Shown piece after piece: positions 4,839 to 43,980 of a stretch of 64,000 nt of DNA. This DNA comes from Candidatus Dormibacteria bacterium (lineage in GTDB: Bacteria > Chloroflexota > Dormibacteria > Aeolococcales > Aeolococcaceae): positions 1,430 to 65,429 of the forward strand of contig JBOHUE010000157.1 in NCBI GenBank assembly GCA_050734185.1, given 5' to 3'. Every line of letters begins with the position of its first letter. Positions within the stretch are counted from its first letter, which is position 1. A program made the position numbers and the translations under genes. The notes below the pieces were generated by a model, which saw nothing but the letters and a program-made list of their open reading frames with translations, was not told the DNA's origin and made no database searches.

Positions 4839-4854
4839 CTACACTCCCACGCCG

Positions 4855-6600: not shown

Positions 6601-6652
6601 CCGCGACCCTTTCCTATAATTCGCTGCCAATCGCCGGAGCGCAGGAGGCGCA

Positions 6653-7846
6653 ATGACTTTCCCCAACGACATCGTGATCATGGGTGGCTGCGGACACGTC
6701 GGCCTGCCGCTCGGGATCGCGTTCGCCTGCCGCGGTCTTCGCGTGGAGCTGTTCGACACCAATGCCGACGTCGTGCAGATGGTCAACGGCGGGCAGATGC
6801 CGTTTCGCGAGAATGGAGCCGATGGGGCGCTCGCCACCGTGCTGCGCGAGGGTCGTCTGACCGCCACCAGCGATCCCGCGTCGATCGCGCGTGCGGAGAA
6901 CGTGGTCGTGGTGGTCGGCACGCCGGTCAACCGCTATCTCAGCCCCGACATCGAGGCGGTGCCGCGCGCGCTGATGTCCGTCGCGGAACATCTCGTCGAC
7001 GGTCAGCTCATCGTGCTCCGCAGCACGGTGTACCCGGGTGTCACAGCGCTGGTCGAACGGCAGTTGCGCGATGCCAGCGCGTCAGTCGAGGTCTGTTTCT
7101 GCCCCGAACGGATCGCTGAGGGCCACGCGCTGGAGGAGCTGCACCAGCTGCCCCAGATCGTTGCCGCGCGCAGCCCGCACGCGATCGATCGCGCGAGCGC
7201 GCTGTTTCGCCAGCTCACCGATCACATCGTCGAGCTGTCGCCGGAGGAGGCGGAGCTGGCCAAGCTCTTCACGAACACCTGGCGTTACGTGAAGTTCGCG
7301 GCGGCCAACCAGCTGTTCATGATCGCCAACGACCGCGGCCTCGACTTCGAGCGCATCCGCGGTGCGATCACGCACATGTATCCGCGTGCGGCGGACATGC
7401 CCGGCCCCGGATTCTCCGCCGGCCCCTGCCTGTTCAAGGACACGATGCAGATCGCTGCATTCTCGGAAAACACGTTCACGCTGGGTCATGCCAGCGTCAT
7501 GATCAACGAGGGACTGCCGCTGTACGCCGTGGGTAAGCTGGAGCAGCGCTTCGACCTGTCGACGATGACGATCGGCATCCTCGGGATGGCGTTCAAGGGC
7601 GGCTCGGACGACACACGGGCGAGCCTCAGCTACAAGCTGAAGCGGCTGCTCAAACTCAAGGCTCTCGAAGTCCTCTGCACGGATCCCTACGTGTCGTCGG
7701 ACGACGACCTGACGCCGCTCGACGACGTGCTCGCGCGGGCGGACCTGCTCATCGTCGCGACGCCACACCCGGAGTACGCGGCGCTGCAGCCGGGCGTTCC
7801 CGTCGTCGATCTCTTCAACATTCTGGGACAGGGCGTCGTCATTTGA
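6653..7846 (+). CDS. nucleotide-sugar dehydrogenase (UDP-glucose/GDP-mannose dehydrogenase family)
   Basis: N-terminal Rossmann IVIMGGCGHVGLPLG; catalytic-region motifs FCPERIAEG and GFSAGPCLFKDT (equivalents of NPEFLxEG and GGSCFPKD); C-terminal UDP-binding domain. Confidence 0.85.
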   Translation: MTFPNDIVIMGGCGHVGLPLGIAFACRGLRVELFDTNADVVQMVNGGQMPFRENGADGALATVLREGRLTATSDPASIARAENVVVVVGTPVNRYLSPDIEAVPRALMSVAEHLVDGQLIVLRSTVYPGVTALVERQLRDASASVEVCFCPERIAEGHALEELHQLPQIVAARSPHAIDRASALFRQLTDHIVELSPEEAELAKLFTNTWRYVKFAAANQLFMIANDRGLDFERIRGAITHMYPRAADMPGPGFSAGPCLFKDTMQIAAFSENTFTLGHASVMINEGLPLYAVGKLEQRFDLSTMTIGILGMAFKGGSDDTRASLSYKLKRLLKLKALEVLCTDPYVSSDDDLTPLDDVLARADLLIVATPHPEYAALQPGVPVVDLFNILGQGVVI

Positions 7847-8598
7847 AGCCGCGCGTCTCGGTGGTCGTTCCCGTGCACAACGAGGGCGACGGCGTCACTG
7901 CGTTTCTCGAGCGACTGTTCGAGGCGCTGTCGCTTCCGGCTGAGGTGCTGTGCGTGTACGACGGCCCCGAGGACACCACGCTGCCGACGCTGCACCATGT
8001 TGCGCAACGCGAGCCGCGCTTGCGCGCCGTGCACAACACGTACGGGCGCGGCCCGGCGAACGCCATCCGCTTCGGCATCGACAACGCCATCGCGGATGTG
8101 GTTGTGGTCACGATGGCGGACGGCAGTGACGATCCGATGCAGATCGACCCCCTCACGCGGCTCGTCGAACGTGGCGTCGTGGTGGCGTGCGCCTCACGCT
8201 ACATGCGCGGGGGGCAGCAGGTGGGCGGCCCGTGGCTCAAGGGACGCATCTCGCGCACCGCAGGCGTCTCACTGCGGGTGTTCGGCAGAGTCGGGACGCA
8301 CGACGCCACCAACTCGTTCAAGGCGTATTCGCGAGCGTTCGTGCGCAAGGTCGGCATCGAGTCGGATGCGGGGTTCGAGATGGGACTCGAGATGGTCGCC
8401 AAGGCACGCCGGCTCCGGCTCCCGGTTGCCGAGCTGCCCACCATCTGGCTGGACCGTACGGGCGGTGTGTCCAACTTCAAGGTGCGCGCGTGGATGCCCC
8501 GCTACCTGCGCTGGTACTTGTATGCACTGGGGATGGGCAGGACGGACGCGCGCCGCGGCACGCAGCCGGACAGTTCTCTGGAGGCGGCGTCAGAGTGA
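7843..8598 (+). CDS. GT2 glycosyltransferase, polyprenol-monophosphate-sugar synthase (Ppm1/DPM1/CsbB-like)
   Basis: ATGA overlap with upstream gene; VSVVVPVHNE start and DGSDD (DxD-type) motif; about 250 aa, typical of the Ppm1 catalytic domain. Confidence 0.8.
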   Translation: MKPRVSVVVPVHNEGDGVTAFLERLFEALSLPAEVLCVYDGPEDTTLPTLHHVAQREPRLRAVHNTYGRGPANAIRFGIDNAIADVVVVTMADGSDDPMQIDPLTRLVERGVVVACASRYMRGGQQVGGPWLKGRISRTAGVSLRVFGRVGTHDATNSFKAYSRAFVRKVGIESDAGFEMGLEMVAKARRLRLPVAELPTIWLDRTGGVSNFKVRAWMPRYLRWYLYALGMGRTDARRGTQPDSSLEAASE

Positions 8599-9620
8599 GC
8601 ACAGTCCTTGTCACGGGATCGTCCGGGTTCATCGGCGGGTACGTCGTCGAGGAGCTGCTGGCCCGCGGCCACAGTGTGATCGGCATCGACAACGAGTCGA
8701 AGTACGGTCCGGTGTCCCGCTCCTACGACCAGCACAGCAACTACCGCCTCATCCGCGGCGATGTCCAGGACACAGCGCTGATGCGCGACGCGCTCGCCGG
8801 CTGCGATCACCTCATCGCCGGTGCTGCGATGATCGGCGGGATCTCGTACTTCCACACGTACGCGTATGACCTCCTCGCAACCAACGAACGAGTGATCGCG
8901 TCGACGTGTGACGCAGCCATCGACGCCCATCGGAACGGCAGGCTGCAGAAGGTCACCTACCTCAGCTCGTCGATGGTCTTCGAGTCCGCCGACCGCTGGC
9001 CCTCGTACGAAGGCCAGGAGCTCGAGGTCCCGCCGCCGAAATCGTCGTACGGCTTTCAGAAGCTTGCGGTCGAGTTCTTCGCGCGCGCGGCGCACCGTCA
9101 GTACGAGGTGCCGTTCACGATCGTGCGCCCCTTCAACTGCGTCGGCGTGGGCGAGGGACGGGCGCTCGGCGAGGTCGAGATCCTGAGCGGCAACGTGAAG
9201 CTGGCGATGAGCCACGTCGTGCCCGACCTGGTGCAAAAGGTGTTGAAGGGGCAGGATCCGCTGCACCTCCTCGGCGACGGCAGCCAGGTGCGTCACTACA
9301 CGTACGGCGGCGACCTGGCCAAGGGCATCGTCACCGCGATGGAGAGTCCTGCGGCGCTCAACGAGGACTTCAACCTCTCGACGCGCGACTCGACGACGGT
9401 GCTCGAGTTGGCCGAACAGATCTGGCGGCGGGTCCGGGGTGACGCGGTGCCGTTTCGCTACGTGTCGGATCCACCGTTCGAGTACGACGTGCAGCGCCGC
9501 GTCCCCGCGGTGGACAAGGCGGAGCGTGTCCTGGGGTTCGAGGCCACCACCACGCTCGATGAGATGCTCGACGAGGTGGTGCCGTGGATCGAGAGCGCCG
9601 TGGCAGCCGGCGCCATCTGA
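8595..9620 (+). CDS. NAD-dependent epimerase/dehydratase (extended SDR, UDP-sugar 4-epimerase/decarboxylase-like)
   Basis: GTG start at 8595 overlapping the upstream TGA (GTGA). The track ORF 8187..9620 is a 5' over-extension that overlaps the GT2 gene. Motifs VLVTGSSGFIGGYV (GxxGxxG) and SSYGFQK (YxxxK). Confidence 0.8.
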   Translation: MSTVLVTGSSGFIGGYVVEELLARGHSVIGIDNESKYGPVSRSYDQHSNYRLIRGDVQDTALMRDALAGCDHLIAGAAMIGGISYFHTYAYDLLATNERVIASTCDAAIDAHRNGRLQKVTYLSSSMVFESADRWPSYEGQELEVPPPKSSYGFQKLAVEFFARAAHRQYEVPFTIVRPFNCVGVGEGRALGEVEILSGNVKLAMSHVVPDLVQKVLKGQDPLHLLGDGSQVRHYTYGGDLAKGIVTAMESPAALNEDFNLSTRDSTTVLELAEQIWRRVRGDAVPFRYVSDPPFEYDVQRRVPAVDKAERVLGFEATTTLDEMLDEVVPWIESAVAAGAI

Positions 9621-16188: not shown

Positions 16189-17609
16189 CCCGCATCCTGG
16201 TCATCGCGCCATATCCGCCGGTGCGTGACGGCATTGCCGCGTACACGGTGCAGTCGGTGGCCCGCCTGCGTCACGCGGGCAATCACGTTGAGGTGCTGTC
16301 TCCGTACCCGTCCGCGGCACACCACCACCTGCCGCTCAACACCATCAACGGAGTGCTGCGGCTGATCCCGTACGTTCGCCGTTTCGACACGGTCCTCGTG
16401 CAGTACCACCCGGACATCTTCTTCCCGCGCTCGAGCAGCGCAGCGGAACGCGAGCGCATCGCCGCGGCCCTCACGCTCGTGTGGCGCAGCGCAGCGCACG
16501 TCGAGATTCGAGTCCACGAAGCTGATTACGCGCGGGCGCATCGCGGGCCGGCGTGGCTGGCGACGCGCGCGATGTGGCGCGCCGCGTCCCGGATAACGGT
16601 GCACACCGGCACCGAGCGGACACTGTTCCATCGAGCGTACGGCCTCCCGCTCGCACGCATCGAGGTGGAGCGTCACGGCAGCGACTTCGCCGTGCGCAGT
16701 GGCGACAGCCGTGATGACGCGCGTGCTCGGCTCGCGCTGCCGCGCGACCAGCTCATGTTTCTGTCGATCGGTTTCATCCAGCCGCACAAGGGCTTCGACC
16801 GGGCGATCCGGGCGTTCATCGCGAGTGGCGCCGCCGGATCGAGGGGGGCACGACTCGATGTCGTCGGTTCCGTGCGCGTCGAGGAACCGGCGTATGTCGC
16901 TCACCTGGAGGAGCTGCAGCGGCTCGCCGACGCGACCAGCGACGTGCATCTGCACGTGGGCTTCATCGGCGATGAGGAGTTCGATACCTGGATCGTCGCC
17001 GCGGACGTCATCGTGCTGCCGTATCGCCACATCTGGTCATCGAGCGTGATGGAGCGCGCCGCACTGTACGGCCGGCCCGTCCTCGCCGCAAGGGTTGGCG
17101 GCCTCGCCGACCAAGCGCGGCCGAACACCACCCTGTTCGACGACGACGCCGAGCTGGCAGCCGCCATGCGGCACATCGTTGCGGAGCGCGGCGTCGCCCT
17201 CGACACGAGTCCGGCGCCGCGCATCCCCTGGCCGGACCCCGAAACGGCCACGCGCGCCATCGTCGAAGACGAGGTGCGGAGCCGCGCGGCCGCCGAGCGC
17301 CGCGCTCTGTTCCCGAGTGACCGAAACGGCGCTGCGCCGCCCACCTCCACAAACGGCACGGCCCTCACCGGCGTGAGCGCACGGCTGCGCCGGCTCCCGC
17401 CACTGCAGCTGCCCGCCCCCGAGTCACCCCGGCCCGGCGCGACTCCGCTCAAGCGGTTGATCCAGCGTCTCACGCGCTGGCAGCTGGAGCCGATCGTGCA
17501 TCAGGTCAACGAGCTGCAGCGGGTCGTCGCCAGCACACTGGAGGACCGCCCGCTCGGGGAATCGGATCAGGCGCCCGACAGCCCGCGGACGCTGGTGTCG
17601 CCCCCGTAG
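16185..17609 (+). CDS. GT4-family glycosyltransferase with about 120-aa low-complexity C-terminal extension
   Basis: GTG start overlapping the upstream TGA; ILVIAPYPP N-terminus; C-domain motif VLPYRHIWSSSVMERAALYGRPVL. Confidence 0.75.
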   Translation: MTRILVIAPYPPVRDGIAAYTVQSVARLRHAGNHVEVLSPYPSAAHHHLPLNTINGVLRLIPYVRRFDTVLVQYHPDIFFPRSSSAAERERIAAALTLVWRSAAHVEIRVHEADYARAHRGPAWLATRAMWRAASRITVHTGTERTLFHRAYGLPLARIEVERHGSDFAVRSGDSRDDARARLALPRDQLMFLSIGFIQPHKGFDRAIRAFIASGAAGSRGARLDVVGSVRVEEPAYVAHLEELQRLADATSDVHLHVGFIGDEEFDTWIVAADVIVLPYRHIWSSSVMERAALYGRPVLAARVGGLADQARPNTTLFDDDAELAAAMRHIVAERGVALDTSPAPRIPWPDPETATRAIVEDEVRSRAAAERRALFPSDRNGAAPPTSTNGTALTGVSARLRRLPPLQLPAPESPRPGATPLKRLIQRLTRWQLEPIVHQVNELQRVVASTLEDRPLGESDQAPDSPRTLVSPP

Positions 17610-20113
17610 TTCGGAGAGAACACCGGCGGAGCCCCCGCGAACGAGTGGAACCCGCCGTAGTAGTCAACGACCCACCCCTGGGTGCTTGACCCCGGCACGA
17701 ACACGATGCCGCGGGCGATGTCCCAGGCGGGCCAGTAGCCGGTGATCTGCTGCGGGGTGAGCTGCGGCGGCGCGCTGCCGGGCACGCCGAAGGGATGCGG
17801 CCCGCCGAGGCCGTCCATCACATAGCCGCCGGTTCCGGCCGGATCGAGGGCGAACCGGTGGGCGATGTCCCAGCCGGGCCAGTACGCGGTCACGGCGGCG
17901 TTCGCCGGGATGTCGCCGCTCACGCCGAACGCGTGCACTCCCCCGAGACCGTCCAAGACGTAGCCGCTGACGCCATCCGACCGAAGCTGCACGTCGCGCG
18001 CGATGTTCCATCCCTGCCAGTACGCGGTCACCTGCACGCTCGGAGGCATGTCACCCGGCACGCCGAACGGATGCAGGCCACCGAGACCGTCGAGGACGTA
18101 GCCGCTCTGGCCGTCGGGGCGCACCGCGATGCCGCGAGCGATGTCCCAGCCGGGCCAATAGGCGGTCGCGGCAACCGGCGGCGCGGTGCCGAATGGGTGC
18201 ACCCCGCCGAAGGCGTCGAGCGTGTATCCGCCCGCGCCACCGGCGGCGACCGCGATGCCGCGGACGATGTCCCAGTTGGGCCATTCCGTGGCGCCGTACA
18301 TCGGCGCGGACGACCCGGGATCGAGGATGCCCGTCGCTGAAACGGCGTACAAGCCCTTGAAGGGAGTGCTGTACAGCGCCGCCGACGCGATGGTCGTCGT
18401 CGCCGTGTTGGTCGAGAACCCCGCATCCTGGGTCGCAGCCCGGGTGGCCGCCTGCACGGTGAAGGCATACGAGTGCCCGGGCACGCCGTTGAAGGGCATG
18501 CTCGTCTGGTTCGTCGTGCCGTAGCGAATCCAGCCGCCCGCAGCCTGGTCCCTGACCCAGACGATGTACGAGCTGGCGGGGACGCTCGACGGGTCGAGAC
18601 TCCAGGTGAGGGTGATCCCGGTCGTCGCCTGCAGCGGGGACAGCGCGCCCATCGTCGCGCTCGGCGCCATCTGACCGCTCAGCTGGGCGTTCCCGTGGAA
18701 GCCGGTCCACGATCCGGGCAAGATCTTCGTCGTTCCCGGGATGGGGAACGCCCGCACTGTCCAGGCGGTGCGCGCGCTGTTCGCCTGGCTGAGCGTGATG
18801 ACGCTCACCTTGCCGGCGCCCAGGTCCGCGAACGTCGGCGCCGCGAAGCCGCCGACGTCCAGCGGCCCTGCCGTCAGCGCCACCTGTCCCGCGTTGTTGT
18901 AGGCCCGCAGCGTCGCCCCGGCGATGATCCAGACGCCGTTGCTCGAGCCACTGCCGATCGGGCCGATTGCCGGATTCGACTCCAGGCTGCCCACGCCAGG
19001 ATGCGCCGGCCAGCCGGCGAGTGCGTTGCCGGTCCAGTCCCACGCGTAGAGCGAGCCGTCCTCGCTCGCCTCGACGACGTCGCGGCTCCCGTTGCCGAAG
19101 AGATCGCCGAGCGCGGGTGACGCAATGTTCATCGCCCCCGTTGACGCGGGCCAGCCGCCGAACGAGGACCCCGCACCGGTGAACCCATGCACCTGGTCGC
19201 CCGCGGGCCCGCTGTAGAGATTGCCGGTGCCCGCATAGATGGCGACGTTGTGGCCGTCGAGGTCCACAGCGGCGCTCGAGGACCAGGGAACCTGGTCGAT
19301 CGTGTGGGGCCAGCCCGGGATGACGCAGTTCGATTGGTTCGCGTAGCTGTTGGCCACGCACCCGGTCGGTCGGAAGGCCCAGTACACGCCGCCCGTCGGG
19401 TACGGCTCGTACAGCGGTCCGGAGGAATCGAAGCCGACCACGATGTCGAGCTGCCCGTGATGCTCGAGGTCGACCAGCGTGGGTGTATCGAACGCCGTGT
19501 CCCAGACGTGGAGCGGAAAGCCCGACAGCACGTTGCCGTAGCGATCCCACGCCCAGAGATGCTGGTCCCACGCAGCCGCCACCAGCTCCTTGTGGCCGTC
19601 ACCAAAGAGGTCACCCACGGCGACACCACCGAACACACCGGGATTCACGCCGGGTCCAGGTGGGTCGGTGTGCTGCGGCCATCCCGGGAACACCGATCCG
19701 TCGCCGTTGAAGACATAGATGTAGCCCGCCTCGGAGGTGGCGATCACCTCGTCACGCCCGTCGCCGGTGAGGTCGGCGACTGTTGGAGTGCTGTGGATGG
19801 GGCCACCGATGTACTGGGGCCAGCCCGGGAGCACCGCGCCGGTGACGCCATCGAACGCCCACACGCTGCCGTCGGGGAAGCCGGCCACGACCTGCTTGCG
19901 CCCGTCACCGAAGAGGTCGGCGACCGTTCCTCCGCCGAACGGCTCCGACGAGATCCCCGACGGCGGGCTCGACTTACCGGGCGCGACGTGGACGGTGGCG
20001 GACCAGCTCGCGGTCAGCGTCGGCGGCGCTGCAGGGGCCGGCGTGCTGCCACCAGCGCCGGTTGCGAACACGTAGGCCGACAGGACTGCGGCACTCCACG
20101 AAAACGCCCCCAT
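17567..20113 (-). CDS. secreted FG-GAP-repeat beta-propeller / FN3 / 42-aa-repeat protein
   Basis: Signal peptide; seven FG-GAP-like Ca-loop repeats (VADLFGDGRKQVVAG, VADLTGDGRDEVIAT, VGDLFGDGHKELVAA ...), each followed by a GWP motif; fibronectin-III-like segment (ITLTWSLDPSSVPASSYIVWVRD...YAFTVQA); six C-terminal copies of the 42-aa repeat. Confidence 0.8.
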   Translation of the reverse strand: MGAFSWSAAVLSAYVFATGAGGSTPAPAAPPTLTASWSATVHVAPGKSSPPSGISSEPFGGGTVADLFGDGRKQVVAGFPDGSVWAFDGVTGAVLPGWPQYIGGPIHSTPTVADLTGDGRDEVIATSEAGYIYVFNGDGSVFPGWPQHTDPPGPGVNPGVFGGVAVGDLFGDGHKELVAAAWDQHLWAWDRYGNVLSGFPLHVWDTAFDTPTLVDLEHHGQLDIVVGFDSSGPLYEPYPTGGVYWAFRPTGCVANSYANQSNCVIPGWPHTIDQVPWSSSAAVDLDGHNVAIYAGTGNLYSGPAGDQVHGFTGAGSSFGGWPASTGAMNIASPALGDLFGNGSRDVVEASEDGSLYAWDWTGNALAGWPAHPGVGSLESNPAIGPIGSGSSNGVWIIAGATLRAYNNAGQVALTAGPLDVGGFAAPTFADLGAGKVSVITLSQANSARTAWTVRAFPIPGTTKILPGSWTGFHGNAQLSGQMAPSATMGALSPLQATTGITLTWSLDPSSVPASSYIVWVRDQAAGGWIRYGTTNQTSMPFNGVPGHSYAFTVQAATRAATQDAGFSTNTATTTIASAALYSTPFKGLYAVSATGILDPGSSAPMYGATEWPNWDIVRGIAVAAGGAGGYTLDAFGGVHPFGTAPPVAATAYWPGWDIARGIAVRPDGQSGYVLDGLGGLHPFGVPGDMPPSVQVTAYWQGWNIARDVQLRSDGVSGYVLDGLGGVHAFGVSGDIPANAAVTAYWPGWDIAHRFALDPAGTGGYVMDGLGGPHPFGVPGSAPPQLTPQQITGYWPAWDIARGIVFVPGSSTQGWVVDYYGGFHSFAGAPPVFSPNYGGDTSVRGLSGA
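17570..18386 (-). repeat. in-frame coding tandem repeat, 42-aa period, about 6 copies
   Basis: Same GYVLDGLGGxHPFG...AYWPGWDIARG unit as in 1216..3402, read from the translation. Confidence 0.8.
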
Positions 20114-21507: not shown

Positions 21508-23730
21508 GTGGCGCAGCACGGCGGTACAGGTCGCAGTTGGCACAAACTGGCTGCGCTCGCACTCGCCGGCGCGGTGGTCACCGTCCTTGCGCCCACCGGT
21601 ATCACCGCGCACGCCGACACCGCACACTCACTCGTCACCGCTGGGGCGCCGCTGGCCATCGCCGGCGCCGTGGCGCCGGGCATCATCGACAACAACCTGT
21701 GCTCGAGTCATCCGTACGGGACGGTGATGATCAGTGGCGCGTCGTGGGCCGGCGGCCTGGGACATCCGCCGTCGTCGGGTGGCGCGACGTTCGATGTGTC
21801 CAGCAACTGGGACGGCTCGTCGTGCTGGCGCAGCGAGGAGCCGACCGACGGCAGGGACAGCTACGGAACGCAGTACCAGTGCACCGAACTGGCGATGCGT
21901 GTTGCCGACCTCGAGTGGGGTGAGGGCAGCGAGAGAGCGTGGTCGGCGGCAGGCTGGACCGGCGACGGTTACAGCATGTTCGACGCCGGCCCCAGGCTTG
22001 CTGTCCCGCTCGTGGCGACGCCCAACGGCTCAGGATCGCTGCCGAGTCCAGGCGACATCATGGTGTGGGACGCAACGCCGAGTGACACCACCGGCCACGT
22101 TGCGGTGGTCGAGCGAGTCGACACGGTGGCGCAGCGGGTCTGGGTCGTCAGCCAGAACAGCTACGCCGCCGAATATGGTCTTCCCTACTCCGGCACCACC
22201 ATCGATCCGACAGCTCAGTTTGGTCTTCCGCTGCGCGGTTGGCTCGGCAGTCCGCGGCCGACGCGCGGTGTCGCGCTGCGCAGCGACGGTGTATCGGGAT
22301 ACGCGCTCGACGGTTGGGGTGGCGTGCTCCCGTTCGGCGGTGCACCGCCGCTGAGCGTCAGCGCGTACTGGCCCGACTGGGACATCGCACGCGGGATGGC
22401 AATGCGCGCCGACGCGTCCGGCGGATACGTCCTCGACGCCTTCGGGGTCCTGCATCCCTTTGGCAGCGCGCCGGATGTCGCCATCAGCGCGTACTGGCCC
22501 GGGTGGGACATCGCCCGCGCCGTCGTGCTTCGATCCGACGGTGTGAGCGGGTACGTTCTCGATGGTCTCGGCGGCCTGCATCCCTTCGGCGGCGCGCCCT
22601 CGGTGGCGATCAGCGCGTACTGGCCGGGCTGGGACATCGCGCGTGCCGTCGTACTCCGGCCGGACGGCGTGAGCGGCTACGTTCTCGACGGACTCGGCGG
22701 CCTCAATCCATTCGGCGGCGCGCCGTCGGTCGGCGCCACCGCGTACTGGCCGTCGTGGGACATCGCCCGTGCCGTGACGCTGGTGACCGACAACAGCAAT
22801 CCACATGTGCCGGCGAACTCCGGCTGGACGCTCGACGGCTGGGGCGGCGTGCACCCGTTCGGCGGTGCGCCGGCCGTCGACTTCCCAGCAAATCCGTACT
22901 TTTCCGGTCGCGACGTCGCCCGCGGCATCGCCTTTCAACCGTTGATGGACGCCGGTGTGACGGTCGACGGCCGGTCGACCCCCGCAGCGTTTCGCGTCAC
23001 ACCGCCTGTCCGTGCACTCGCGTACAAACCCGGGACGAGCAGCGGCTACCTGCTGGATGGCTACGGAGGCCTCACGCCGTTTGCCGGAGCGCCCGCTCTC
23101 TCGGCTGCGTCGGCGAAACCGCGCTGGCCGGAGTGGGACATCGCGCGCGGCGTCGCTCTTCGCGCCAACGGGACGAGCGGTTACGTGCTCGACGGCTTCG
23201 GCGGCCTGCACCCGTACGGCGGGGCGCCGAACGTGGTCATCACCGGGTACTGGCAGGGCCACGATCTCGCACGCGGAGTGGTGCTCCGGGCTGATGGCGT
23301 GAGCGGCTACGTGCTGGACGCGCACGGCGCGCTGTGGCCGTTCGGCGGCGCACCCGCGATCGCGACGACGACCACCTGGTCGACCGACGTCGCCCGCGGA
23401 GTCGTGCTGACGTCGAATGGGACGGGTGGCTACGTGCTCGACGCATATGGTGGCGTGAATCCGTTCGGCTCTGCGTCGGCGAGTGCAGCGCCCATGTGGC
23501 CCGGATGGGACCTGGCCCGCAGCATCGCGCTCCTCACCGATACGAGTGGATACATCCTCGACAGCTGGGGCGGCGTGCACCCGTTCGGCGGCGCGCCACT
23601 CCTGCCCGGCGCCCGCTACTGGCCGGGGTCCGACGCCGCGCGAGGCATCGCGCTCTCCGGGTCATCGACCGCACAGTCGCCGTCGGGCACCGTCGCCTAC
23701 CTCAACGGAGCGACGAGCAGCGTCTCGTAG
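21508..23730 (+). CDS. secreted CHAP-domain amidase/peptidase with 12 C-terminal 42-aa repeats
   Basis: Signal peptide; CHAP catalytic Cys context YQCTELAMRVADL (aa about 125) and His context GHVAVVERVD (aa about 197); then about 12 tandem copies of the 42-aa repeat. Confidence 0.8.
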   Translation: MAQHGGTGRSWHKLAALALAGAVVTVLAPTGITAHADTAHSLVTAGAPLAIAGAVAPGIIDNNLCSSHPYGTVMISGASWAGGLGHPPSSGGATFDVSSNWDGSSCWRSEEPTDGRDSYGTQYQCTELAMRVADLEWGEGSERAWSAAGWTGDGYSMFDAGPRLAVPLVATPNGSGSLPSPGDIMVWDATPSDTTGHVAVVERVDTVAQRVWVVSQNSYAAEYGLPYSGTTIDPTAQFGLPLRGWLGSPRPTRGVALRSDGVSGYALDGWGGVLPFGGAPPLSVSAYWPDWDIARGMAMRADASGGYVLDAFGVLHPFGSAPDVAISAYWPGWDIARAVVLRSDGVSGYVLDGLGGLHPFGGAPSVAISAYWPGWDIARAVVLRPDGVSGYVLDGLGGLNPFGGAPSVGATAYWPSWDIARAVTLVTDNSNPHVPANSGWTLDGWGGVHPFGGAPAVDFPANPYFSGRDVARGIAFQPLMDAGVTVDGRSTPAAFRVTPPVRALAYKPGTSSGYLLDGYGGLTPFAGAPALSAASAKPRWPEWDIARGVALRANGTSGYVLDGFGGLHPYGGAPNVVITGYWQGHDLARGVVLRADGVSGYVLDAHGALWPFGGAPAIATTTTWSTDVARGVVLTSNGTGGYVLDAYGGVNPFGSASASAAPMWPGWDLARSIALLTDTSGYILDSWGGVHPFGGAPLLPGARYWPGSDAARGIALSGSSTAQSPSGTVAYLNGATSSVS
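22234..23727 (+). repeat. in-frame coding tandem repeat, 42-aa period, about 12 copies
   Basis: Read from the translation; the antisense 516-aa ORF 22030..23580 is an artefact of this GC-rich repeat. Confidence 0.8.
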
Positions 23731-23815: not shown

Positions 23816-23886
23816 GCCCCCTTAGCTCATCGGTAGAGCAGCCGGCTTTTAACCGGTTGAGGGAGGTTCGATTCCTCCAGGGGGCA
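23816..23886 (+). tRNA. tRNA-Lys (anticodon UUU)
   Basis: Hand-folded cloverleaf: 7-bp acceptor GCCCCCT/AGGGGGC, D-arm GCTC-ATCGGTA-GAGC, anticodon arm GCCGG-CTTTTAA-CCGGT, T-arm GGAGG-TTCGATT-CCTCC, discriminator A; CCA not encoded. Confidence 0.8.
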
Positions 23887-25638
23887 TCAGCGACGGTGCG
23901 CGGCGCGCACCTGCTCCGCTGCAGCGATGTATCGCTGTGCCGCGTAACGCCTATACCGCTTGCTGCGGTACCACGGGCGCAACTGCAGCAGCATCGGTGG
24001 CCGGCCGCGGTACAGCGCGACAGCGCTCGACGAGTCCAGCTGGCGCAGCGCATCGGGTGGCGCGATGTTGTCGTTGCGCACCGAGTACGCGCGGCTGACG
24101 CGACCATCGGCTCTGCTGACCTGCACGTCGGTGACCGCGTGACGGCCGACGAGCCGGGAGAGCAGGTCGACGGTCTCGGGATCGGTGATGCCCGGAAGAA
24201 TCAGCTTCGCCGGGTGGTTGTTGAGGATCGAGTGCGCGCGATCCGCACCATAGCGCGCACGCAGTTGCGACAGGTCCTGCACGATCGACAGCAGCAGCAC
24301 GCCGCGACCTGCGCCCTGTGACGCGAGACCGGGAAGGTCCTCGATGGGGACGACGTTGGCGAGCTCGTCGAGAAACAGACCGAGCGCGTGATCGAGCCTG
24401 CCCCGCGGTGACTCCTCCGCGATGGTGTATGCCTCGGTCACGACGGTCATCAGAATGCCGACGAAGAGGCCGGCGATGCGCTCCGGCGCGAGTCGCGGCG
24501 TGCAGAGGTAGAGGGTGCCGCCACGTTCGAGGAAGGCTCGCGGATCGAACCTGCTCGACTCGGCCGATGCCGCGGCTGCCCGCTCGTTGAACACGTTGAA
24601 GATGCGCATCACCGTGGAGAACACGGTGCCGCGCTCACGTTCCGGGCGCTGATCCACCGACGCGACCATCGACAGCGCGCGCGCTGCATCCGCGTGGTGC
24701 GGCCGCGAGTCGTCGCTCTGCAGATCCTCCAGCAATGCCATCGGTGTCGCGAGGTCGAAGCCGTGGATCCAGGTGTGCACGTCGACGACGGTGCATCCCG
24801 CGTTGGCCGCAGCGAACAGCAGCGGTGCGATGAGCAGCTTGCCCGACTCCGCCCAGTGCGCCCAGTCGTTGTCGCCACGGCTGGAGCCCTGCTGCAGCCC
24901 GGCGCAGAGCCATGCAGCCACAAGCCATGCGCGGTCGAGGTCCTCACACCCGGCAAGGGGCGACCACGTGACCGACGGCGCGCGCTCGCCCAATTCCCCG
25001 GTGGGGTCGTACACATACACGGGTCCGACGCGTTGCCGGCGTGCCGCGGTCAGCGCGAGCAGCTCGCCCTTGGTGCTGGTAACGACCGCGGGCCCACGCC
25101 AGTCGAGCAGGTTCGGCACCACCAGGCACGTCGTCTTCCCCGACCGCGTGGGTCCGACGACGAGCACGCTGGTCTCGCGTTCGGTGAGGACGAGACGGCG
25201 CCACGCGCGACCGAGCACGAAGCGACCAGGGCGCGCGGAGCGTGCACGGAGACCGCGCATGTCGCGGGCGCGTGCCCACCGTGAGATCGCGCGGATGCGC
25301 CGCGGTGAGCGCGGAACGAGGAGTCGTATCACCAACACGGCGCCGGCCGGCGGCACCGCGCACAACACGGCGAACGCGGTGAAGAACACCGCCGCGTGCG
25401 TGTGCGCGCCGGCTCCCACCAGGTCCCATGCGGCGATGCCGCCGCCGGACCGCACGAGCGCCACGATGCGTGCGGGGTCGGCGTAGCGCAACAGGCCGAC
25501 GGTGGGGTGGCCACCGGCGACCACCGAGGCGACGGTGAGCACCACCCACGCCGCGCACCACAGCATTGCAAGCGCGGCGACGAGCGCAAGCTCGGCGTGA
25601 GCGGATCGGCTCGAGCCGCGCGGAGTGCTCGCTATCAC
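23887..25638 (-). CDS. type IV secretion coupling protein-like ATPase (TraG/TraD/VirD4 family), orphan
   Basis: Two N-terminal TM helices; Walker [12 protein letters not shown]; [21 protein letters not shown] and YVYDPTGE motifs typical of T4CP. Stop codon directly abuts the tRNA-Lys 3' end. Confidence 0.7.
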
Positions 25639-25697
25639 GCCCCGAGTGTTCGCCGTCGAGACGGACGCGAGCCGGACGATCTTCCCTTACGGGAGCG

Positions 25698-26573
25698 CTA
25701 CCTCTTCGCGAGGCCCTCTGCGGTGAGACGCACGACGTCCTCGAGCGTGTCGGCGATGCGTGCCCCCGCCGCGCGCAGCGCGTCGATCTTGCTCTGCGCG
25801 GTGCCGGTGTTTCCGCTGATGATCGCGCCCGCGTGCCCCATGCGCTTGCCCTCCGGCGCGGTGCGTCCGGAGATGAACGCGACGACCGGGCGATCAAAGC
25901 TCGACTCCCGCATCCACGCTGCCGCCGCCTCCTCGTCGGATCCGCCGATCTCGCCGATCAGCACCACGGCGTGGGTCTCAGGATCGTCCCCGAAGAGTCG
26001 CAACACGTCGGTGAAGCCGAGGCCGAGCACCGGGTCGCCACCGATGCCGACCGATGTCGTCTGCCCCATCCCCGCCTGCCCGAGCCCCTGGATGACCTCG
26101 TAGGTGAGCGTGCCACTGCGCCCGACGATGCCGACCGGGCCAGGCCGGTTGATGTGGTTCGGAATGATCCCCACCTTGCACTCATCCGGCGTCACGACGC
26201 CGGGGCAGTTCGGTCCGACCAGCCGCGCACCGTGCACGGAGACGAACTCGCGTGCGCGCACCATGTCGAGCACGGGGATGCCCTCTGTGATGCAGATGAC
26301 GAGCGGCAACGCCGAGGACGCCTCCATGATCGCGTCGGCGGCGAATGCGGGTGGCACAAACACCCCGGCGACGTTCGCGCCGGTCGCCGCCACAGCGGTG
26401 GCGACGGTGTCGAACACGGGCACGCCGTCGACGTCGCTGCCACCCTTTCCGGGAGAGACACCGGCGACGACGTTCGTACCGAACTCGCGCATCTGCGCTG
26501 TGTGAAACCGGCCCTCGCGTCCCGTGATGCCCTGCACCAGGACGCGGCTCTCACGGTCGAGCAGCACGCTCAT
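25698..26573 (-). CDS. sucD: succinyl-CoA ligase (ADP-forming) subunit alpha
   Basis: Full-length match by eye to SucD (CoA-binding, phosphohistidine region MGHAGAII); 4-bp overlap with sucC. Confidence 0.95.
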
Positions 26574-27748
26574 GCCTTCGTGAGCTCCACGATGGTCCGC
26601 GCCGCCTCGGTCGCGCTCGTGGCCGGCACGATGCCTGCTTCACGCAGCAGCGCGCGCCCCTCCTCCTCCATGGTGCCGGTCATGCGCACGACCAGCGGCT
26701 TGGTCAGGTGCAGCTCGTCGCGGGCGGCGATGACGCCGCGCGCCACCTCGTCACCGCGGGTGATGCCGCCGAAGACGTTGATGAACACACCGCGCACCTT
26801 GGGGTCGAGCAGCACCATCTCGAGCGCATTGCGCACCTTGTCGGCGCCGGCGCCGCCGCCGATGTCGAGGAAGTTGGCCGGCTCGCCGCCGTGCTGCTTG
26901 ACGAGGTCGACCGTGTTCATCGTCAGCCCGGCGCCGTTGCCGATGACGCCGACCGTGCCGCCGAGGTGGACGTAGGTGAGCCCCCGCAGCCGTGCCTCCA
27001 CCTCCAGCGGGTCGTCGCCACCGGCCGCGTTGTCAGCCGGGTCGTCCTCGCGCAGCTCCTCGACCAGGTCGCGGTGCCGGAACTCGGCGTTCTCGTCGAC
27101 TTCCAATTTGCCGTCTGCGGCCACCAGCAGCCCGCCGGCCGTGAGCGCCAGCGGGTTGATCTCACACGTGACGGCGTCGAGCGAGATGGCGAGCGCGTAG
27201 AGCTTCTCTCCGATGACCGCCAGCTGCGTTGCCAACTGGCCGGCCCGCCGTGCGAGGTCCCCCGCGCCGGTGAGCCCGGAGAACGCCAGCCGGCGGAGCT
27301 CGAACGGCAGCGGTCCGGCAAACGGATCGGGCCAGAGCTTGGCGATGCGCTCCGGGGTTTCGGTCGCAACCTGCTCGATCTCCATGCCGCCCGCGGCGGA
27401 GAAGATCACCGCCATGCGCCGCCGGTCGCGGTCGAGCGTGATGCCGAGGTAGAGCTCGTTGGCGATGTCCAGGCCCGTCTCGCACCACACGCTGCGGACC
27501 GGGTACCCGCGGATGCTCATCGCAAGGATCCGGGCCGCCTCGCGCTCCGCCTCGTCGGGGGTGTGGACCACGGCGATGCCGCCGGCCTTGCCCCGGCCGC
27601 CGATCGGCACCTGCGCCTTGATCGCCACGGTGCCGAGCTCGCGAGCAGCCTGCGCCGCCTCTGCCGGGGTGCGCGCCAGCCGCCCCTGGGGAACAGCGAT
27701 CCCGGCGGCCGCGAAGCGCTGCTTGGCCTGGTATTCGAGCAGCCTCAT
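26570..27748 (-). CDS. sucC: succinyl-CoA ligase (ADP-forming) subunit beta
   Basis: ATP-grasp N-domain (M)RLLEYQAKQ; ATG with an AAGGTG SD preferred over the upstream GTG of the track ORF. Confidence 0.95.
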
Positions 27749-27771
27749 CGGCGGCACCTTACTCTGCAGAG

Positions 27772-39617: not shown

Positions 39618-40422
39618 GCGTCAGCCTCCTACGATCCTCGCGTCCGGGCCACGCGGTCGGTCATACCGCAAACGATCGTCCCTGCGTCAGCGCCATCGGG
39701 CCTGGCCCTGAGCTTGTGGCCCGTGCGGACTCGGCGTTAGTGGGCTCGAAGCGTGGTATCGGGAGGGACCATCGCAAGCTTGCGATCTGGGGATCGACTG
39801 AGCGAGTGGAGGATGAGCACGGCCGTACCGCCGCTGGGCCGTCCTGACGGCGCCGGCAAAGCTGCTGTCGTCGATGTCTGGGAGAAACGCACCAGGTTGT
39901 TCAATCCGCTAAACGGACGCCGCTGAAAAGGCCCAGGAGGCTCGGAACGAGGACGAGTCCATGTCACAGACCTTGGCTCGGCGGGCCCTGTCCGCTCGCG
40001 CCGGACAAGCGGTCAGCATCCGCGATGACACGGCACTGGGTGGAACCATCACGTAGTCGTGGGTGGGCCTATCGGCTGGCGCTCGACATTGCTGCGTGAG
40101 CTGGCGGAGCTCTACTCCGGCCTCGACCGTAAATCCGCACCGCCTCCCGCTATAGGAAGAATTCGCTTCTTTTCCATTAGTCGACCCTCCGAGGCGAGAA
40201 TCCATAGCGGGGCGGTCGCAGGGAGACCAGACTCCCTCCACTGGGGGCTGTTTGCGCCGCGCAACAGTGGCCCTGGCAAGCCGGCCCGCCAACCAGGCCA
40301 TCCACACCCAGGCGGGCGCCCAGGACCTGCGCGACCACAAAAGAAGCGTTGCTACACGAACGGGTGTTCGCTTATCCTAGCGGTGCCTAGCATCCAGCTT
40401 TGGAGACGTCACTTTTCTTGCC

Positions 40423-41997
40423 ATGACCCCGCTTCCGCCTAACTACTCGCCAGAACTAATCTTCGGAGTAATCGGACCTGCTGGCGCGGACCTGGGTGGA
40501 GTCAGCACAGCTCTTGAGAATGAGTTGCAGCGATACCGATACAAGGCGAAGATCCTGCTGGTAAGTGACCTTTTTAGGTCGCTTCCTGGCTTTGATCACC
40601 TGGGTGGAATCACTCGACCACGAGGCCTGAACGACTATGAGGTCCTGATGTCGGCGGGCGATGCCATAAGACGTCGAGCGAACCGGAAAGACGCCGCAAT
40701 TCTCATGGCCCTAACTAGCATCATCGATTCGCACGGCGATTGGACGAAGGAGCCGCGAGACACTGCCTGGATTCTGAACTCAATCAAAACTCCTCAGGAA
40801 GCGGACCTACTCAATGTCGTATACGGTGGACGCTGCTGGCTGTTATCAGTGTTTACGAAGCGAGAGAGCCGTATTCAGCAAATAGCCGACGAACTCGCGA
40901 GGCAGCGCGGAGGCACCGTCGGGAGAGTGGAGACTCAAGAAGCGGCCGACCTTGTGGAACGCGACGAGGGCGGTGTCACCATCGACGAATTCGGTCAGAA
41001 CGTCGGGGAAGCCTTCCCGCTCGGCGACTACTTCATAGACGTCGACAGAGACGACTTACAGGCACAGTTGCAAAGGTTTCTTCGCCTTGTCTTTGCTGAC
41101 CCATTTATGACGCCACAGCGCGATGAACAACTCATGTTTGTCGCGTACGGAGCTGCAATGCGTTCGGCATCGCTTTCCAGGCAGGTGGGGGCGGCGATCT
41201 CGGTCGAAGACGGCGCCATCGTCGCCATTGGGGCAAACGAAGTACCTAAGGCCGGAGGTGGTCAATATTGGGCTGAAGACTCCAATGCGAAGGCGACTGA
41301 TGATGGCAGGCAATTTCGACAGGCAGAGGATCTGAGCGAGACAACGAAGGACGCAATGGTCCGCGAGCTGCTGGCCTCAATTGAAGAACTACTCAAGGAT
41401 CCGGTTGATTCAGTTTTCGCGTCGCTTGATCGCAAGAAGCTTCGGGTGTTTGATCTCCTCGAGTTCTATCGTGAGATGCATGCGGAGATGGCCGCGGTCA
41501 TCGACGCGGCTCGCCGAGGGGTGTCAATTCGCGAGGGCACGTTAGCCACTACAACCTTCCCCTGCCACGACTGCGCTAAGCACATTATCGGGGCGGGCAT
41601 TAGACGCGTGCTCTTCATACAGCCATACGTGAAGAGCCGAGCGGCTGAACTCCATCGCGACGCACTAGTTATAGGTCATGAGCGCCCGATAGACGTTATA
41701 TTTCAGGGCAACCCCGTGACCTTCGAGACGTACCGCGGGATAGCCCCCAAACGCTACATCGAAGTCTTTCGAATGCCGGCCCGAAAGGTGGCTGGGACTC
41801 AGGTCACCTGGCGCGAAGGCGTTGCCGAGCCACGCACTGGGTTGCTGGGATCGAAGCTAACGCAGTTTGAGGTTGTAGAGGCAGAGCGTGCTGGACAGTG
41901 GTCAGGAGTTGTGGTGCGCGAGCAAGTTTTGGGAAAGAGACTACCCACAATAATCAAGGCCTTAGAGGAGGCTATCAATGCAGAACGGACCACATGA
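40423..41997 (+). CDS. AvcD/DCD-like anti-phage deoxycytidylate/dCTP deaminase (N-terminal CMP-kinase-like domain with degenerate P-loop + C-terminal zinc deaminase)
   Basis: C-terminal CDA/dCMP-deaminase zinc motifs HAE (aa 353-355, nt about 41479) and PCHDC (aa 380-384) preceded by VGAAISVEDGAIVAIGANEV. N-terminus IFGVIGPAGADLGGVSTAL resembles the cytidylate-kinase P-loop IxGPAGxGKST but lacks the Lys. Lower GC than flanks. Confidence 0.65.
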   Translation: MTPLPPNYSPELIFGVIGPAGADLGGVSTALENELQRYRYKAKILLVSDLFRSLPGFDHLGGITRPRGLNDYEVLMSAGDAIRRRANRKDAAILMALTSIIDSHGDWTKEPRDTAWILNSIKTPQEADLLNVVYGGRCWLLSVFTKRESRIQQIADELARQRGGTVGRVETQEAADLVERDEGGVTIDEFGQNVGEAFPLGDYFIDVDRDDLQAQLQRFLRLVFADPFMTPQRDEQLMFVAYGAAMRSASLSRQVGAAISVEDGAIVAIGANEVPKAGGGQYWAEDSNAKATDDGRQFRQAEDLSETTKDAMVRELLASIEELLKDPVDSVFASLDRKKLRVFDLLEFYREMHAEMAAVIDAARRGVSIREGTLATTTFPCHDCAKHIIGAGIRRVLFIQPYVKSRAAELHRDALVIGHERPIDVIFQGNPVTFETYRGIAPKRYIEVFRMPARKVAGTQVTWREGVAEPRTGLLGSKLTQFEVVEAERAGQWSGVVVREQVLGKRLPTIIKALEEAINAERTT

Positions 41998-42286
41998 GAC
42001 TCTGTCGACCCCGGACGCGGGTGGCGAAGCGGTAACTCGAGTAGGAACGCGAGCGCAACAGGCCAGCGAATCGTGGCCCGATTGGTTGAAACGTGCGGTT
42101 GAGTCACACGAGAAAGCATTCGAGAGTGAGAAGAAGCGCAATGGCGACGGAGATAGCTCGGGAATGGCTTAAATGTTGCCCGTTTGCTTCCCTTACATAG
42201 AGAGACCGCCCCATCGGAGCGCCTTCGTCCGGTTACGCGGCGCGGATCGCTGCTGAGCCGCTAGGCGTGCACCGGGAGAGAGAAGA

Positions 42287-43729
42287 ATGCGATTTAGCGA
42301 GTACTTCGGCGTCGCTGCCGCCGGCGTGGAGTGGTACGACCCAGTACTCACTGAGGACACTCCACTATATGTGGACCCGTTTCTTGTCTACGAAGATGCT
42401 GATCCTTTTTGGGCCAGCTCACATGACATCGTTGTCGAGTTCTTTGCGACCGCGCTGGGGCTGGTCCGCCGTGCGCCCGATAGGCGCCAGTCCGTGCATT
42501 GGCGCAAGGCGGAAAGACTTCTCACGTTCCCGGAACCCAAGGAGTTCGCGCTCGGCCTCGCTATGGGGACACCGGTTGGGTCAGGCACGGGAAGGGAATT
42601 CGCGCATGTCATGGCAGGGGCGTTGGGCGTCGTCGCCGGAAGCGGCATCAGTCAGGTCGAGTTTGTAGAGCTGTTCACGCTCTTTGCGCAGGGGCTGGGC
42701 CCCGATCGGATCAGCGATATCCTCTGTAACATCCTCAAGGCGCAGTTCATCGGCTACACACAGTCGATTGCGAAAGAGTTGGGGATTCAGTTATCGCCGA
42801 TACCGACCCGACACGTCAGGTGGAGCGCTGCGAGCACGCGGTGGGAGGACGGACTGTGTCTTCTGCCGCTAAGCCCGGTCACCAACGCAGGTATCCTCTT
42901 AACGCCGCATCGCTTCCTCAAGAACATCCCAACCGTAACGGCTCTGGGCTTCTGGAATTGGGCTGAGACGAGTGCCAGCCAAATTCTCCGCGACGACCTC
43001 AACTACGACCTCGCCGAGCATCTAAGCCGAAGCGAGCGGGAGAGGCGCGCCCGCGAGCTTGCGCATCTACGGCCGCCCCTGGCGCTTAGCTATCTGCAGC
43101 ACGTGGCGGAGGATGTCGAGCACGCTCCATACAATGTTGAAGACGATCCCGACCTACTAGTTGGTTGGCACGAGGCCGGTCGGCTCGCATTCGATCCTGG
43201 CTTGGCGCCAGATGGAGATCCACCGGAGGCTGACTTCTGCATTTGGGTAGGTGATCTGCTGGATCGCTTTCGGCATGCCGTAGAGGAAACGGATTTGTGG
43301 CGCGTGCTATGGAATGACGCTTTGACGAAGCCTCGAGCTGAGAAGATTGTCCAGGCGGTTGCAGGAAGTGTTCTGGCTCCCTACTGCGAAGCCGCTGATG
43401 TTGACCTATCGCGTGAGGCGAATATCGGTCGCGGCGCGGTCGATTTCAAGTTCGCTCGAGGCTGGAAGAAGCGCGCTCTCACGGAAGCTAAGTTGATATC
43501 AAGCAGTCATTTCGACAAGGGAGCCGGAAAGCAACTACCTCAGTATCTGAAAAGTGAACGCATCGAGTGCGGGTACTATTTGTGTGTTGGATTCTTCAAC
43601 GGCGATTTCGAAGGCGATCGCCTATCCAGAGTTACTGAAACGTGTCGGGTGTTATCCGAGCAAATGGGACGTCCGATAGCTCCAGTCATCGTTGATGCTA
43701 GACCCAAGGAATCCGCCTCAAAGTTGTAG
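42287..43729 (+). CDS. hypothetical protein, possible C-terminal PD-(D/E)xK nuclease fold
   Basis: 480 aa, no recognised family; C-terminal GAVDFKF...ALTEAKLIS fits a D...ExK nuclease core; island codon usage. Confidence 0.5.
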   Translation: MRFSEYFGVAAAGVEWYDPVLTEDTPLYVDPFLVYEDADPFWASSHDIVVEFFATALGLVRRAPDRRQSVHWRKAERLLTFPEPKEFALGLAMGTPVGSGTGREFAHVMAGALGVVAGSGISQVEFVELFTLFAQGLGPDRISDILCNILKAQFIGYTQSIAKELGIQLSPIPTRHVRWSAASTRWEDGLCLLPLSPVTNAGILLTPHRFLKNIPTVTALGFWNWAETSASQILRDDLNYDLAEHLSRSERERRARELAHLRPPLALSYLQHVAEDVEHAPYNVEDDPDLLVGWHEAGRLAFDPGLAPDGDPPEADFCIWVGDLLDRFRHAVEETDLWRVLWNDALTKPRAEKIVQAVAGSVLAPYCEAADVDLSREANIGRGAVDFKFARGWKKRALTEAKLISSSHFDKGAGKQLPQYLKSERIECGYYLCVGFFNGDFEGDRLSRVTETCRVLSEQMGRPIAPVIVDARPKESASKL

Positions 43730-43758
43730 TCCTCCACACGGAGCTCTCCGTATCCATA

Positions 43759-43802
43759 CCGCGTTGGCCATTACATCGCACCGCGTTGGCCATTACATCG
43801 CA
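43759..43802. repeat. perfect 22-bp tandem direct repeat x2 (CCGCGTTGGCCATTACATCGCA)
   Basis: Seen directly, 30 bp after the stop of 42287..43729. Confidence 0.8.
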
Positions 43803-43980
43803 GCGGGATGCTGCGATAACGGGCTCGCAAGTTTGATGGGGCTTGGCTACTTTGGCGTTGGTCGAGGCCACAAGTGCCACCACGGCGTCGGTTAGCTGAG
43901 CTCCTCGGTTGTCCACGGGCCTGCTCGTCGAGACGCTCGACGCACTCTCTGGGCTCGGCTAGATTCAGCTAGAGGAGGCT

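Follow-up and report, generated by a model that had tools for sequence, protein, structure and literature searches.

A lone VirD4/TrwB-type coupling protein gene beside tRNA-Lys in Candidatus Dormibacteria, probably displaced from a VirB4/Tad-like operon

Introduction

Among the described type IV coupling proteins (T4CPs), TrwB of R388, VirD4 of Agrobacterium and TraG of RP4 possess N-terminal membrane helices, Walker A and B motifs and an all-alpha domain. A gene for a protein of the same Pfam families and the same architecture is found in the stretch of DNA analysed here, 64,000 nucleotides from a Candidatus Dormibacteria bacterium (assembly GCA_050734185.1, contig JBOHUE010000157.1, positions 1,430 to 65,429 of the forward strand; hereafter the window), where its stop codon touches a gene for tRNA-Lys and sucCD lie upstream of it.

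Cagbeta (Cag5) of Helicobacter pylori is the T4CP of the Cag type IV secretion system (T4SS), which is relaxase-free and chromosomally encoded, translocates effectors in a diderm, and is located on a pathogenicity island. The actinobacterial "helicase/secretion neighbourhood" is a Tad-like locus with the gene order CpaB-CpaE-CpaF-TadB-TadC, as in the Dormibacterota cluster described below, and has a DEAH helicase as its partner instead of VirB4, M23 and T4CP genes. The Patescibacteria carry a chromosomal, monoderm-type T4SS that is VirB4-based and lineage-wide and in which relaxases are rare; their VirD4 homologues are mostly encoded far from virB4, non-conjugative roles are suspected for them, and exaptation has been discussed (PMC12102498). 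Literature searches for a T4SS, T4CP or pilus of the Dormibacterota, or for this cluster, returned nothing specific.

The original prediction, made from the letters of the window, was of an orphan coupling ATPase that is either the last remnant of an integrative conjugative element (ICE) or a domesticated DNA translocase co-transcribed with sucCD. The explanation that best accounts for the data as a whole, and which we hold to be probable, is that of a displaced, still-functional T4CP of a phylum-wide VirB4/Tad-like operon, working in trans.

The coupling protein

The gene product is a bona fide VirD4/TrwB-type coupling protein, encoded by an intact open reading frame (ORF) with the following features:

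23887..25638, minus strand: T4CP coding sequence, 583 aa, GTG start and TGA stop, assigned from Pfam, PDB and AF2/Foldseek
25519..25608, minus strand: predicted N-terminal membrane helix 1, codons 11-40 (AF2 helix H11-40; hydrophobic in the family alignment)
25318..25395, minus strand: predicted N-terminal membrane helix 2, codons 82-107 (AF2 helix H82-107; hydropathy of the orthologue at locus L083 agrees)
25132..25155, minus strand: Walker A, GPTRSGKT, residues 162-169, invariant in a 17-sequence alignment
24355..24378, minus strand: Walker B region, LFLDELAN, residues 421-428, invariant in the same alignment

Three Pfam families recognise the protein: T4SS-DNA_transf (PF02534; 145.6 bits with a cut-off of 20.1, E 2.8e-42), TraG-D_C (PF12696; 80 bits, E 1.8e-22) and TrwB_AAD_bind (PF10412; 46.2 bits, E 3.9e-12); FtsK_SpoIIIE (PF01580) gives no match at E <= 0.01. 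The naming of the product as a TraG/VirD4-like coupling ATPase was thus correct, and the choice between T4SS-DNA_transf and FtsK/SpoIIIE falls to the former. The NCBIfam models of T4CP subfamilies (CD1115-type, IncP TraG, VirD4, Ti TraG and SXT TraD) all match far below their cut-offs, the highest being conju_CD1115 with 117.7 bits against 250, from which we take it to be a T4CP of VirD4 type that belongs to none of the curated subfamilies.

A family profile of the T4CP, when searched against PDB sequences, matched Cagbeta and TrwB. The AF2 model is of moderate confidence (mean pLDDT 70.6) and contains two long N-terminal helices followed by an alpha/beta ATPase domain; Foldseek places it nearest to Cagbeta (8dol, 4e-14, TM 0.49-0.53) and TrwB (1e9s, 1e-10), with HerA and VirB4 ranking lower. 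In the L083 orthologue, a hydropathy scan located membrane segments at positions equivalent to the predicted helices. The model suggests a membrane-anchored ATPase composed of two N-terminal helices, a RecA-like nucleotide-binding domain and an all-alpha domain. As a protein, it is an ordinary though divergent member of the VirD4/TrwB family.

Conservation across the phylum

The comparative data described here all come from metagenome-assembled genomes (MAGs) or metagenome contigs. A protein search produced 275 scored matches, the best 120 of which are all full-length, 54-100% identical and equipped with all three Pfam domains; among these 120, the entries named by source are Candidatus Dormibacteraeota/Dormibacteria or VirD4. 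A scan of one genome per species yielded 114 relatives, of which the best ~65, two of them complete chromosomes, are almost all labelled Dormibacterota, with a few other MAG labels. More than 60 species-level genomes of the Dormibacterota carry a full-length orthologue (54-90% identity) in which Walker A and B are invariant, and an orthologue is present in every related genome that was retrieved. The next tier, beyond the phylum, consists of proteins of 30-40% identity from Acidimicrobiia and other Actinomycetota. Four loci (L004, L016, L040 and L041) have a T4CP and synteny typical of Dormibacterota and are titled Candidatus Acidiferrales or Saccharimonadales, probably through mislabelled taxonomy or binning.

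More than 150 columns, including both Walker motifs, are invariant among the 17 aligned sequences (54-91% identity). The GC content (0.68-0.73) and third-position GC (GC3, 0.84) of the window gene are like those of its flanking genes. In many species the T4CP locus is flanked by the same housekeeping genes in the same order (glycoside hydrolase, MFS transporter, DNA polymerase III delta-prime-like and SDR), which argues for vertical descent. The T4CP is a native, long-kept, vertically inherited chromosomal gene of the Dormibacterota.

The ancestral operon

To define its usual surroundings, ORFs of all fetched loci were clustered and the resulting families re-detected with profile hidden Markov models (HMMs). 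In Dormibacterota the T4CP is typically found as the last gene of, or beside, a conserved cluster of about 12 genes, four of them for small membrane proteins:

Upstream, directly before the VirB4-like gene: 94-aa and ~465-aa (463-aa) proteins with no function assigned (L087 3462-5322; L089 1148-3062)
Gene 1: VirB4-family ATPase (F14; TraC-F-type 1.7e-31, VirB4_CagE 1.8e-26, PDB VirB4 4ag5 2.7e-13)
Gene 2: M23 cell-wall peptidase
Gene 3: CpaB-like protein (F10; weak match)
Gene 4: ParA/CpaE/TadZ/Ssd-like protein (F26; weaker Ssd/CpaE-like match)
Gene 5: T2SSE ATPase, CpaF/TadA/VirB11-like (F4; top match TIGR03819 TadA-family, then TrbB/VirB11)
Genes 6-7: two ~300-aa polytopic proteins (F7 and F9), TadB/C-like by position and size
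Gene 8: protein with three transmembrane segments (F17)
Genes 9-10: membrane protein with a ParA-like domain (F2/F6)
Gene 11: ~200-aa single-pass protein (F16)
Gene 12: T4CP

At L083 the genes overlap or stand a few bases apart, as expected of an operon. By position the 94-aa and ~465-aa proteins might be VirB3-like and VirB6-like; a match to an ICE membrane-protein family is insignificant (E 0.049). A profile of the F7/F9-type TadB/C-like protein found no match among PDB sequences. No relaxase was detected within 10 kb in any Dormibacterota locus, the scan covering the conserved flanking families and selected flanking ORFs rather than whole genomes; in the actinobacterial outgroup a TrwC relaxase or a VirB4-like gene lies directly upstream of the T4CP.

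The arrangements fall into several classes, for which the counts are approximate, some loci having short flanks; L002/L030 and L001/L062 each represent one contig fetched twice. The operon is collinear and ends in the T4CP, after a gap of ~50 nt, in ~19 loci; the same cluster is inverted and adjoins the T4CP in ~24; and in another ~19 there is no cluster nearby, the T4CP being accompanied only by a partner, protein X (F1). Neither cluster nor X is found at three loci, namely the window, L052 and L084, each having 7 kb or more of flanking sequence to either side.

Protein X (~390 aa) adjoins the T4CP in ~58 loci, where it stands upstream in the same orientation or downstream in the convergent one; it has no Pfam, NCBIfam, PADLOC or PDB-sequence match. 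Examples are:

L001 11787-12977, minus strand: protein X
L022 8878-9924, plus strand: protein X

Its N-terminal, conserved ~180 residues appear by eye to form two tandem repeats reminiscent of PATAN/DUF4388.

Exchange of the operon for sucCD

In the window the T4CP is surrounded by the following features:

23816..23886, plus strand: tRNA-Lys(UUU) (ARAGORN; Rfam RF00005, 69.1 bits; no CCA encoded)
25639..25697, minus strand: 59-nt spacer from the sucD stop to the T4CP start, read as a rearrangement junction replacing the ancestral upstream operon
25698-26573, minus strand: sucD (Pfam CoA_binding/Ligase_CoA)
26570-27757, minus strand: sucC (Pfam ATP-grasp_2/Ligase_CoA)
25698..27757, minus strand: sucCD together, on the strand of the T4CP, as new upstream neighbours in the window lineage only

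The T4CP and tRNA-Lys are convergent and have a spacer of 0 nt between the T4CP stop and the tRNA 3' end: in the plus-strand sequence, the letters right after the discriminator base A (23886) are TCA, which is the TGA stop in reverse complement. Both the abutment and the position downstream of sucCD had been read properly from the sequence. So had the orphan state of the gene in the window, where profile HMMs of all 11 partner families known from relatives found no match among the ORFs, and where no integrase, recombinase, relaxase or T4SS gene was seen among the scanned ORFs within ~15 kb or elsewhere, the small ORFs having been scanned in part.

The sucCD-T4CP junction occurs, among 88 related loci, only at L052 and L084 besides the window; the upstream neighbour elsewhere is the secretion operon, X, tRNA-Arg or other genes. 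At L083 (T4CP 74% identical to that of the window) the T4CP closes the whole operon, and 84 nt further on comes a convergent tRNA-Lys, beyond which lie an acyltransferase and then glycosyltransferases; L085, a close relative, also has the whole operon ending in the T4CP. L084 (90% identical) has the order carboxyltransferase, Acyl_transf_3, AI-2E, sucC, sucD, T4CP as in the window, then a 2.6-kb insert with a HisKA_3 kinase, and then the tRNA-Lys-acyltransferase-GT2 flank of L083. L052 (78% identical) has sucCD-T4CP, a 3.4-kb insert (an HTH-AAA-TPR STAND-type regulator and two SnoaL proteins) and tRNA-Lys, past which a CHAP protein and GT1 follow as in the window. At L003 an ORF of 1624 aa with TIG domains stands between the T4CP and tRNA-Lys. 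The tRNA-Lys is 100% identical in the window, L003, L052, L083 and L084, while its flanks are not. The slot between the T4CP stop and tRNA-Lys is located as follows:

Window, 23886/23887
L083, 11800-11884
L084, 11788-14395
L052, 10157-13517
L003, 8876-13937

The distance is thus 0 nt in the window and 84 nt to ~5 kb in the other four. We considered whether the inserts in this slot are integrated elements and rejected this; they comprise a kinase, a regulator with SnoaL proteins, or a giant TIG protein, with no integrase seen. The abutment in the window costs a few codons of a non-conserved C-terminal tail, and the zero-spacer state appears as one end of the variation of the slot. Since the pairing is shared by L083, in which the operon is intact, the association of T4CP and tRNA-Lys is ancestral in the clade and predates the loss of the upstream operon. 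The sequences indicate that a breakpoint between F16 and the T4CP swapped the operon for sucCD in the ancestor that the window shares with L084 and L052.

The other side of this breakpoint may be seen in assembly GCA_036378495.1, in which one contig (DASUWI010000007; L052) carries sucCD-T4CP and another (DASUWI010000083; L088) carries the operon without T4CP. L088 reads VirB4-like, M23, CpaB-like, CpaE-like, T2SSE ATPase, F7, F9, F17, F2, F6 and F16, after which come a 188-aa protein, a Lactamase_B-like protein and an acyl-CoA dehydrogenase, with no T4CP in an HMM check. L087, L089 and L090 likewise show the operon end without T4CP. The genome of L001 has T4CP and cluster 190 kb apart on a single 1.87-Mb contig. 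These cases indicate that T4CP and cluster have been separated, with both retained, at least twice, the L052/L088 case depending on correct binning.

The spacer between sucD and the T4CP is conserved in part in L084 and L052. The ATG start codon of these two reads ATA in the window (25630-25640), and the start in the window is likely the GTG one codon upstream of the mutated ATG, which is preceded by GGGG; one database copy of the identical protein is annotated 24 codons shorter at the start. Nei-Gojobori dN/dS of the T4CP is 0.13 between the window and L084 (dS 0.40), 0.19 between the window and L052 (dS 0.94) and 0.20 between L084 and L052, against 0.10-0.18 for in-operon pairs and 0.10-0.23 for in-operon or mixed pairs. 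Because the window, L084 and L052 split after the rearrangement, these low ratios indicate that purifying selection was maintained at the new location.

Proposed history and function

The ancestral gene order would have been the ~12-gene operon with the T4CP last and a convergent tRNA-Lys after it. With the rearrangement in that shared ancestor of the window and of L084 and L052, the T4CP would have stayed by tRNA-Lys and gained sucCD upstream, the rest of the operon now ending in unrelated genes elsewhere in the genome; later insertions and deletions between the T4CP stop and the tRNA would have led to the 0-nt abutment. Expression of the T4CP would depend on transcripts that run on from sucCD or that start in the 59-nt spacer. 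A scan of the sucD-T4CP-tRNA region for promoters and terminators gave nothing informative, and the spacer has no promoter-like or terminator-like site.

Most likely, as we infer, the T4CP continues to serve the VirB4/Tad-like envelope machine in trans, as its substrate-receptor ATPase. As no relaxase was found with the system, a protein, or DNA handled without a canonical relaxase, would be a more likely substrate than a conjugative plasmid strand. It is tempting, if speculative, to go further and picture a hybrid machine of the Dormibacterota, in which a Tad-like pilus module is set within a monoderm-type T4SS (VirB4, M23 hydrolase and T4CP) without relaxase, serving contact-dependent protein delivery or relaxase-independent exchange of chromosomal DNA, with the window T4CP as a functional part encoded in trans. 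If true, an uncultured soil phylum would possess a class of apparatus, for secretion or DNA exchange, that has not been described before. An operon of VirB4, M23, Tad-like and T4CP genes inherited across the phylum may in itself be undescribed, its Tad/T4SS hybrid nature resting partly on weak matches.

Several observations weigh against a displaced but working component. The TadB/C assignment of F7 and F9 comes from gene order, size and one T2SSF match of E=0.09, and no pilin, VirB6 or VirB8 was identified among the operon products. Protein X is absent from the window clade. Of 199 positions with conservation of 95% or more in a set of 50 other orthologues, the window T4CP deviates at 6 (the median orthologue at 1), its changes being mostly conservative and none within a motif. 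Retention of the operon in the window organism is extrapolated from a sister MAG with a 78% identical T4CP and depends on binning. Finally, in L003 (region 2522-8876) an internal deletion has removed VirB4-like through F17 and joined an MFS/cytidylate-kinase-like gene directly to a truncated F2, with F2-F6-F16-T4CP left intact; this state implies that a T4CP can outlive the machine or may have its own role, and the L003 lineage may be losing the machine while keeping the T4CP.

Alternative explanations

The last observation leads to a T4CP exapted to a stand-alone role independent of the VirB4/Tad-like machine (for example membrane handling of DNA or protein, alone or with X), a possibility that we take seriously but consider rather unlikely. 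The L003 protein is intact (dN/dS 0.10 against L083) after the deletion, the T4CP is linked more tightly to X (~58 loci) than to the cluster (~43), the ~19 loci with T4CP and X have no cluster nearby, and the mostly remote VirD4 homologues of Patescibacteria have raised the same idea of exaptation (PMC12102498). The cluster, however, is still present wherever long contigs or the same assembly allowed checking (L086 and L088), and 43 loci are physically linked, 19 of them with the T4CP as terminal operon gene after the gap of ~50 nt. We also know of no T4CP that works without a translocon. A stranded gene heading to decay, already non-functional and yet to accumulate disabling mutations, is a good deal less plausible. 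It would agree with the isolation of the gene from all partners in the window, with the 6 deviations at highly conserved positions where the median orthologue has 1, with the ancestral ATG now reading ATA, and with a C-terminal tail a few codons shorter than in relatives; against this, the frame is intact in all three post-rearrangement genomes (dS 0.4-0.95) with dN/dS of 0.13-0.19 where the window is compared, not above that of in-operon orthologues, all catalytic motifs are intact, and a GTG start after a G-rich stretch is available.

The ICE remnant offered by the original prediction was suggested by the location of the T4CP exactly at a tRNA 3' end, and to this may be added that the slot holds differing cargo of 2-5 kb in relatives, as if the site were recombinationally active, and that the nearest relatives outside the phylum (30-40% identity, Acidimicrobiia) adjoin TrwC relaxases. 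It is nonetheless scarcely credible here, and it fails the test that the prediction had set for itself. The direct repeat that such an insertion should have left was not found, the 26-nt 3' end of tRNA-Lys matching only itself at up to 3 mismatches in the whole 64 kb, with no relevant repeat family; the scanned ORFs contain no integrase or relaxase; GC and GC3 match the host; orthologues exist in more than 60 species with conserved housekeeping synteny; the gene is under purifying selection (dN/dS 0.13-0.19); and the pairing with tRNA-Lys, found in five related genomes, is older than the loss of the upstream operon, with sucD-T4CP conserved in three. Equally remote is a translocase functionally coupled to succinyl-CoA synthetase and selected within a sucCD operon: the two are on the same strand with a 59-nt gap and no terminator-like site, and the junction has been kept in three genomes to dS ~0.94, but the adjacency is found in only three of ~70 loci and a biochemical rationale is lacking. 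Of the suggested domesticated translocase co-transcribed with sucCD, then, the domestication was right in spirit and co-transcription is possible, but the adjacency is a lineage-specific rearrangement junction and not a functional pairing.

Membership of a defence system was also considered and rejected, PADLOC yielding weak P-loop matches only.

A displaced T4CP acting in trans is the reading that we prefer. For annotation, the lesson is that a lone VirD4/TraG gene beside a tRNA should not be taken for a decayed ICE as a matter of course; the one described here belongs to the core of its lineage and is under selection. The natural series of arrangements (collinear, inverted, split and part-deleted) offers a comparative test of T4CP function in trans or without a translocon. 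What is moderately interesting is not so much the gene, which is ordinary, as its genomic history and the cluster outside the window.

Other features of the window

Within ~15 kb of the T4CP in either direction, the ORFs searched with Pfam belong to metabolism or the cell envelope. They code for enzymes (glycosyltransferases, methyltransferases, succinyl-CoA synthetase, carboxyltransferase and methylmalonyl-CoA mutase), for an ABC-2 permease and an AI-2E transporter, and for products of a similar kind. Just beyond tRNA-Lys is a gene for a 740-aa protein:

21508-23730, plus strand: N-terminal CHAP domain followed by ~ten 42-aa (126-nt) tandem repeats
17567-20113, minus strand, and 1216-3402, plus strand: an FG-GAP protein and an Ig-like/metalloprotease protein with the same repeat domain

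The CHAP protein was considered as protein X or as a T4SS hydrolase and rejected, being a repeat-rich surface protein with no similarity to X; it is linked to the T4CP only in the window and L052.

The only compositionally odd stretch, at 40000-55000, has a GC content of 0.57-0.64 against ~0.68-0.72 elsewhere and contains no transfer genes. Its ORFs include:

40423-41997: protein with a cytidine-deaminase domain
within 40-55 kb: 480-aa protein with no function assigned
44108-46020: two adjacent HNH_2 endonucleases
49333-54051, minus strand: 1572-aa Sacsin/NOV_C protein

The stretch looks like an acquired, possibly defence-related island.

Comparison with known systems

The window T4CP is only 16-18% identical to TrwB, VirD4 and TraG, TrwB being its second-best structural match, and differs from them in that its gene is chromosomal and vertically inherited, with no relaxase or oriT context found and no adjoining T4SS gene. 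Cagbeta is the best PDB match in both sequence and fold, at 13-14% identity. The ParA-like protein and the T2SSE ATPase of the Dormibacterota cluster have their best NCBIfam matches, all below cut-offs, in the actinobacterial Ssd/TIGR03815-TadA TIGR03819 locus. The nearest T4CPs outside the phylum (30-40% identity) belong to T4SS-type conjugative elements of Actinomycetota, which have VirB4-like or TrwC directly upstream; these elements carry a relaxase and lack conserved synteny, whereas the Dormibacterota loci are without a relaxase within 10 kb among the scanned families and ORFs. The pairing of the archaeal Ups pilus with Ced is a loose parallel to the proposed hybrid machine. The best conceptual parallel, drawn apart from any question of homology between the two systems, is provided by the Patescibacteria, the sister phylum of the Dormibacterota. 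The Dormibacterota cluster is distinguished from theirs by the Tad-like module (CpaB, CpaE, CpaF and TadB/C-like) placed between VirB4 and the T4CP, and by a T4CP that is still linked to the cluster in most genomes of the phylum.

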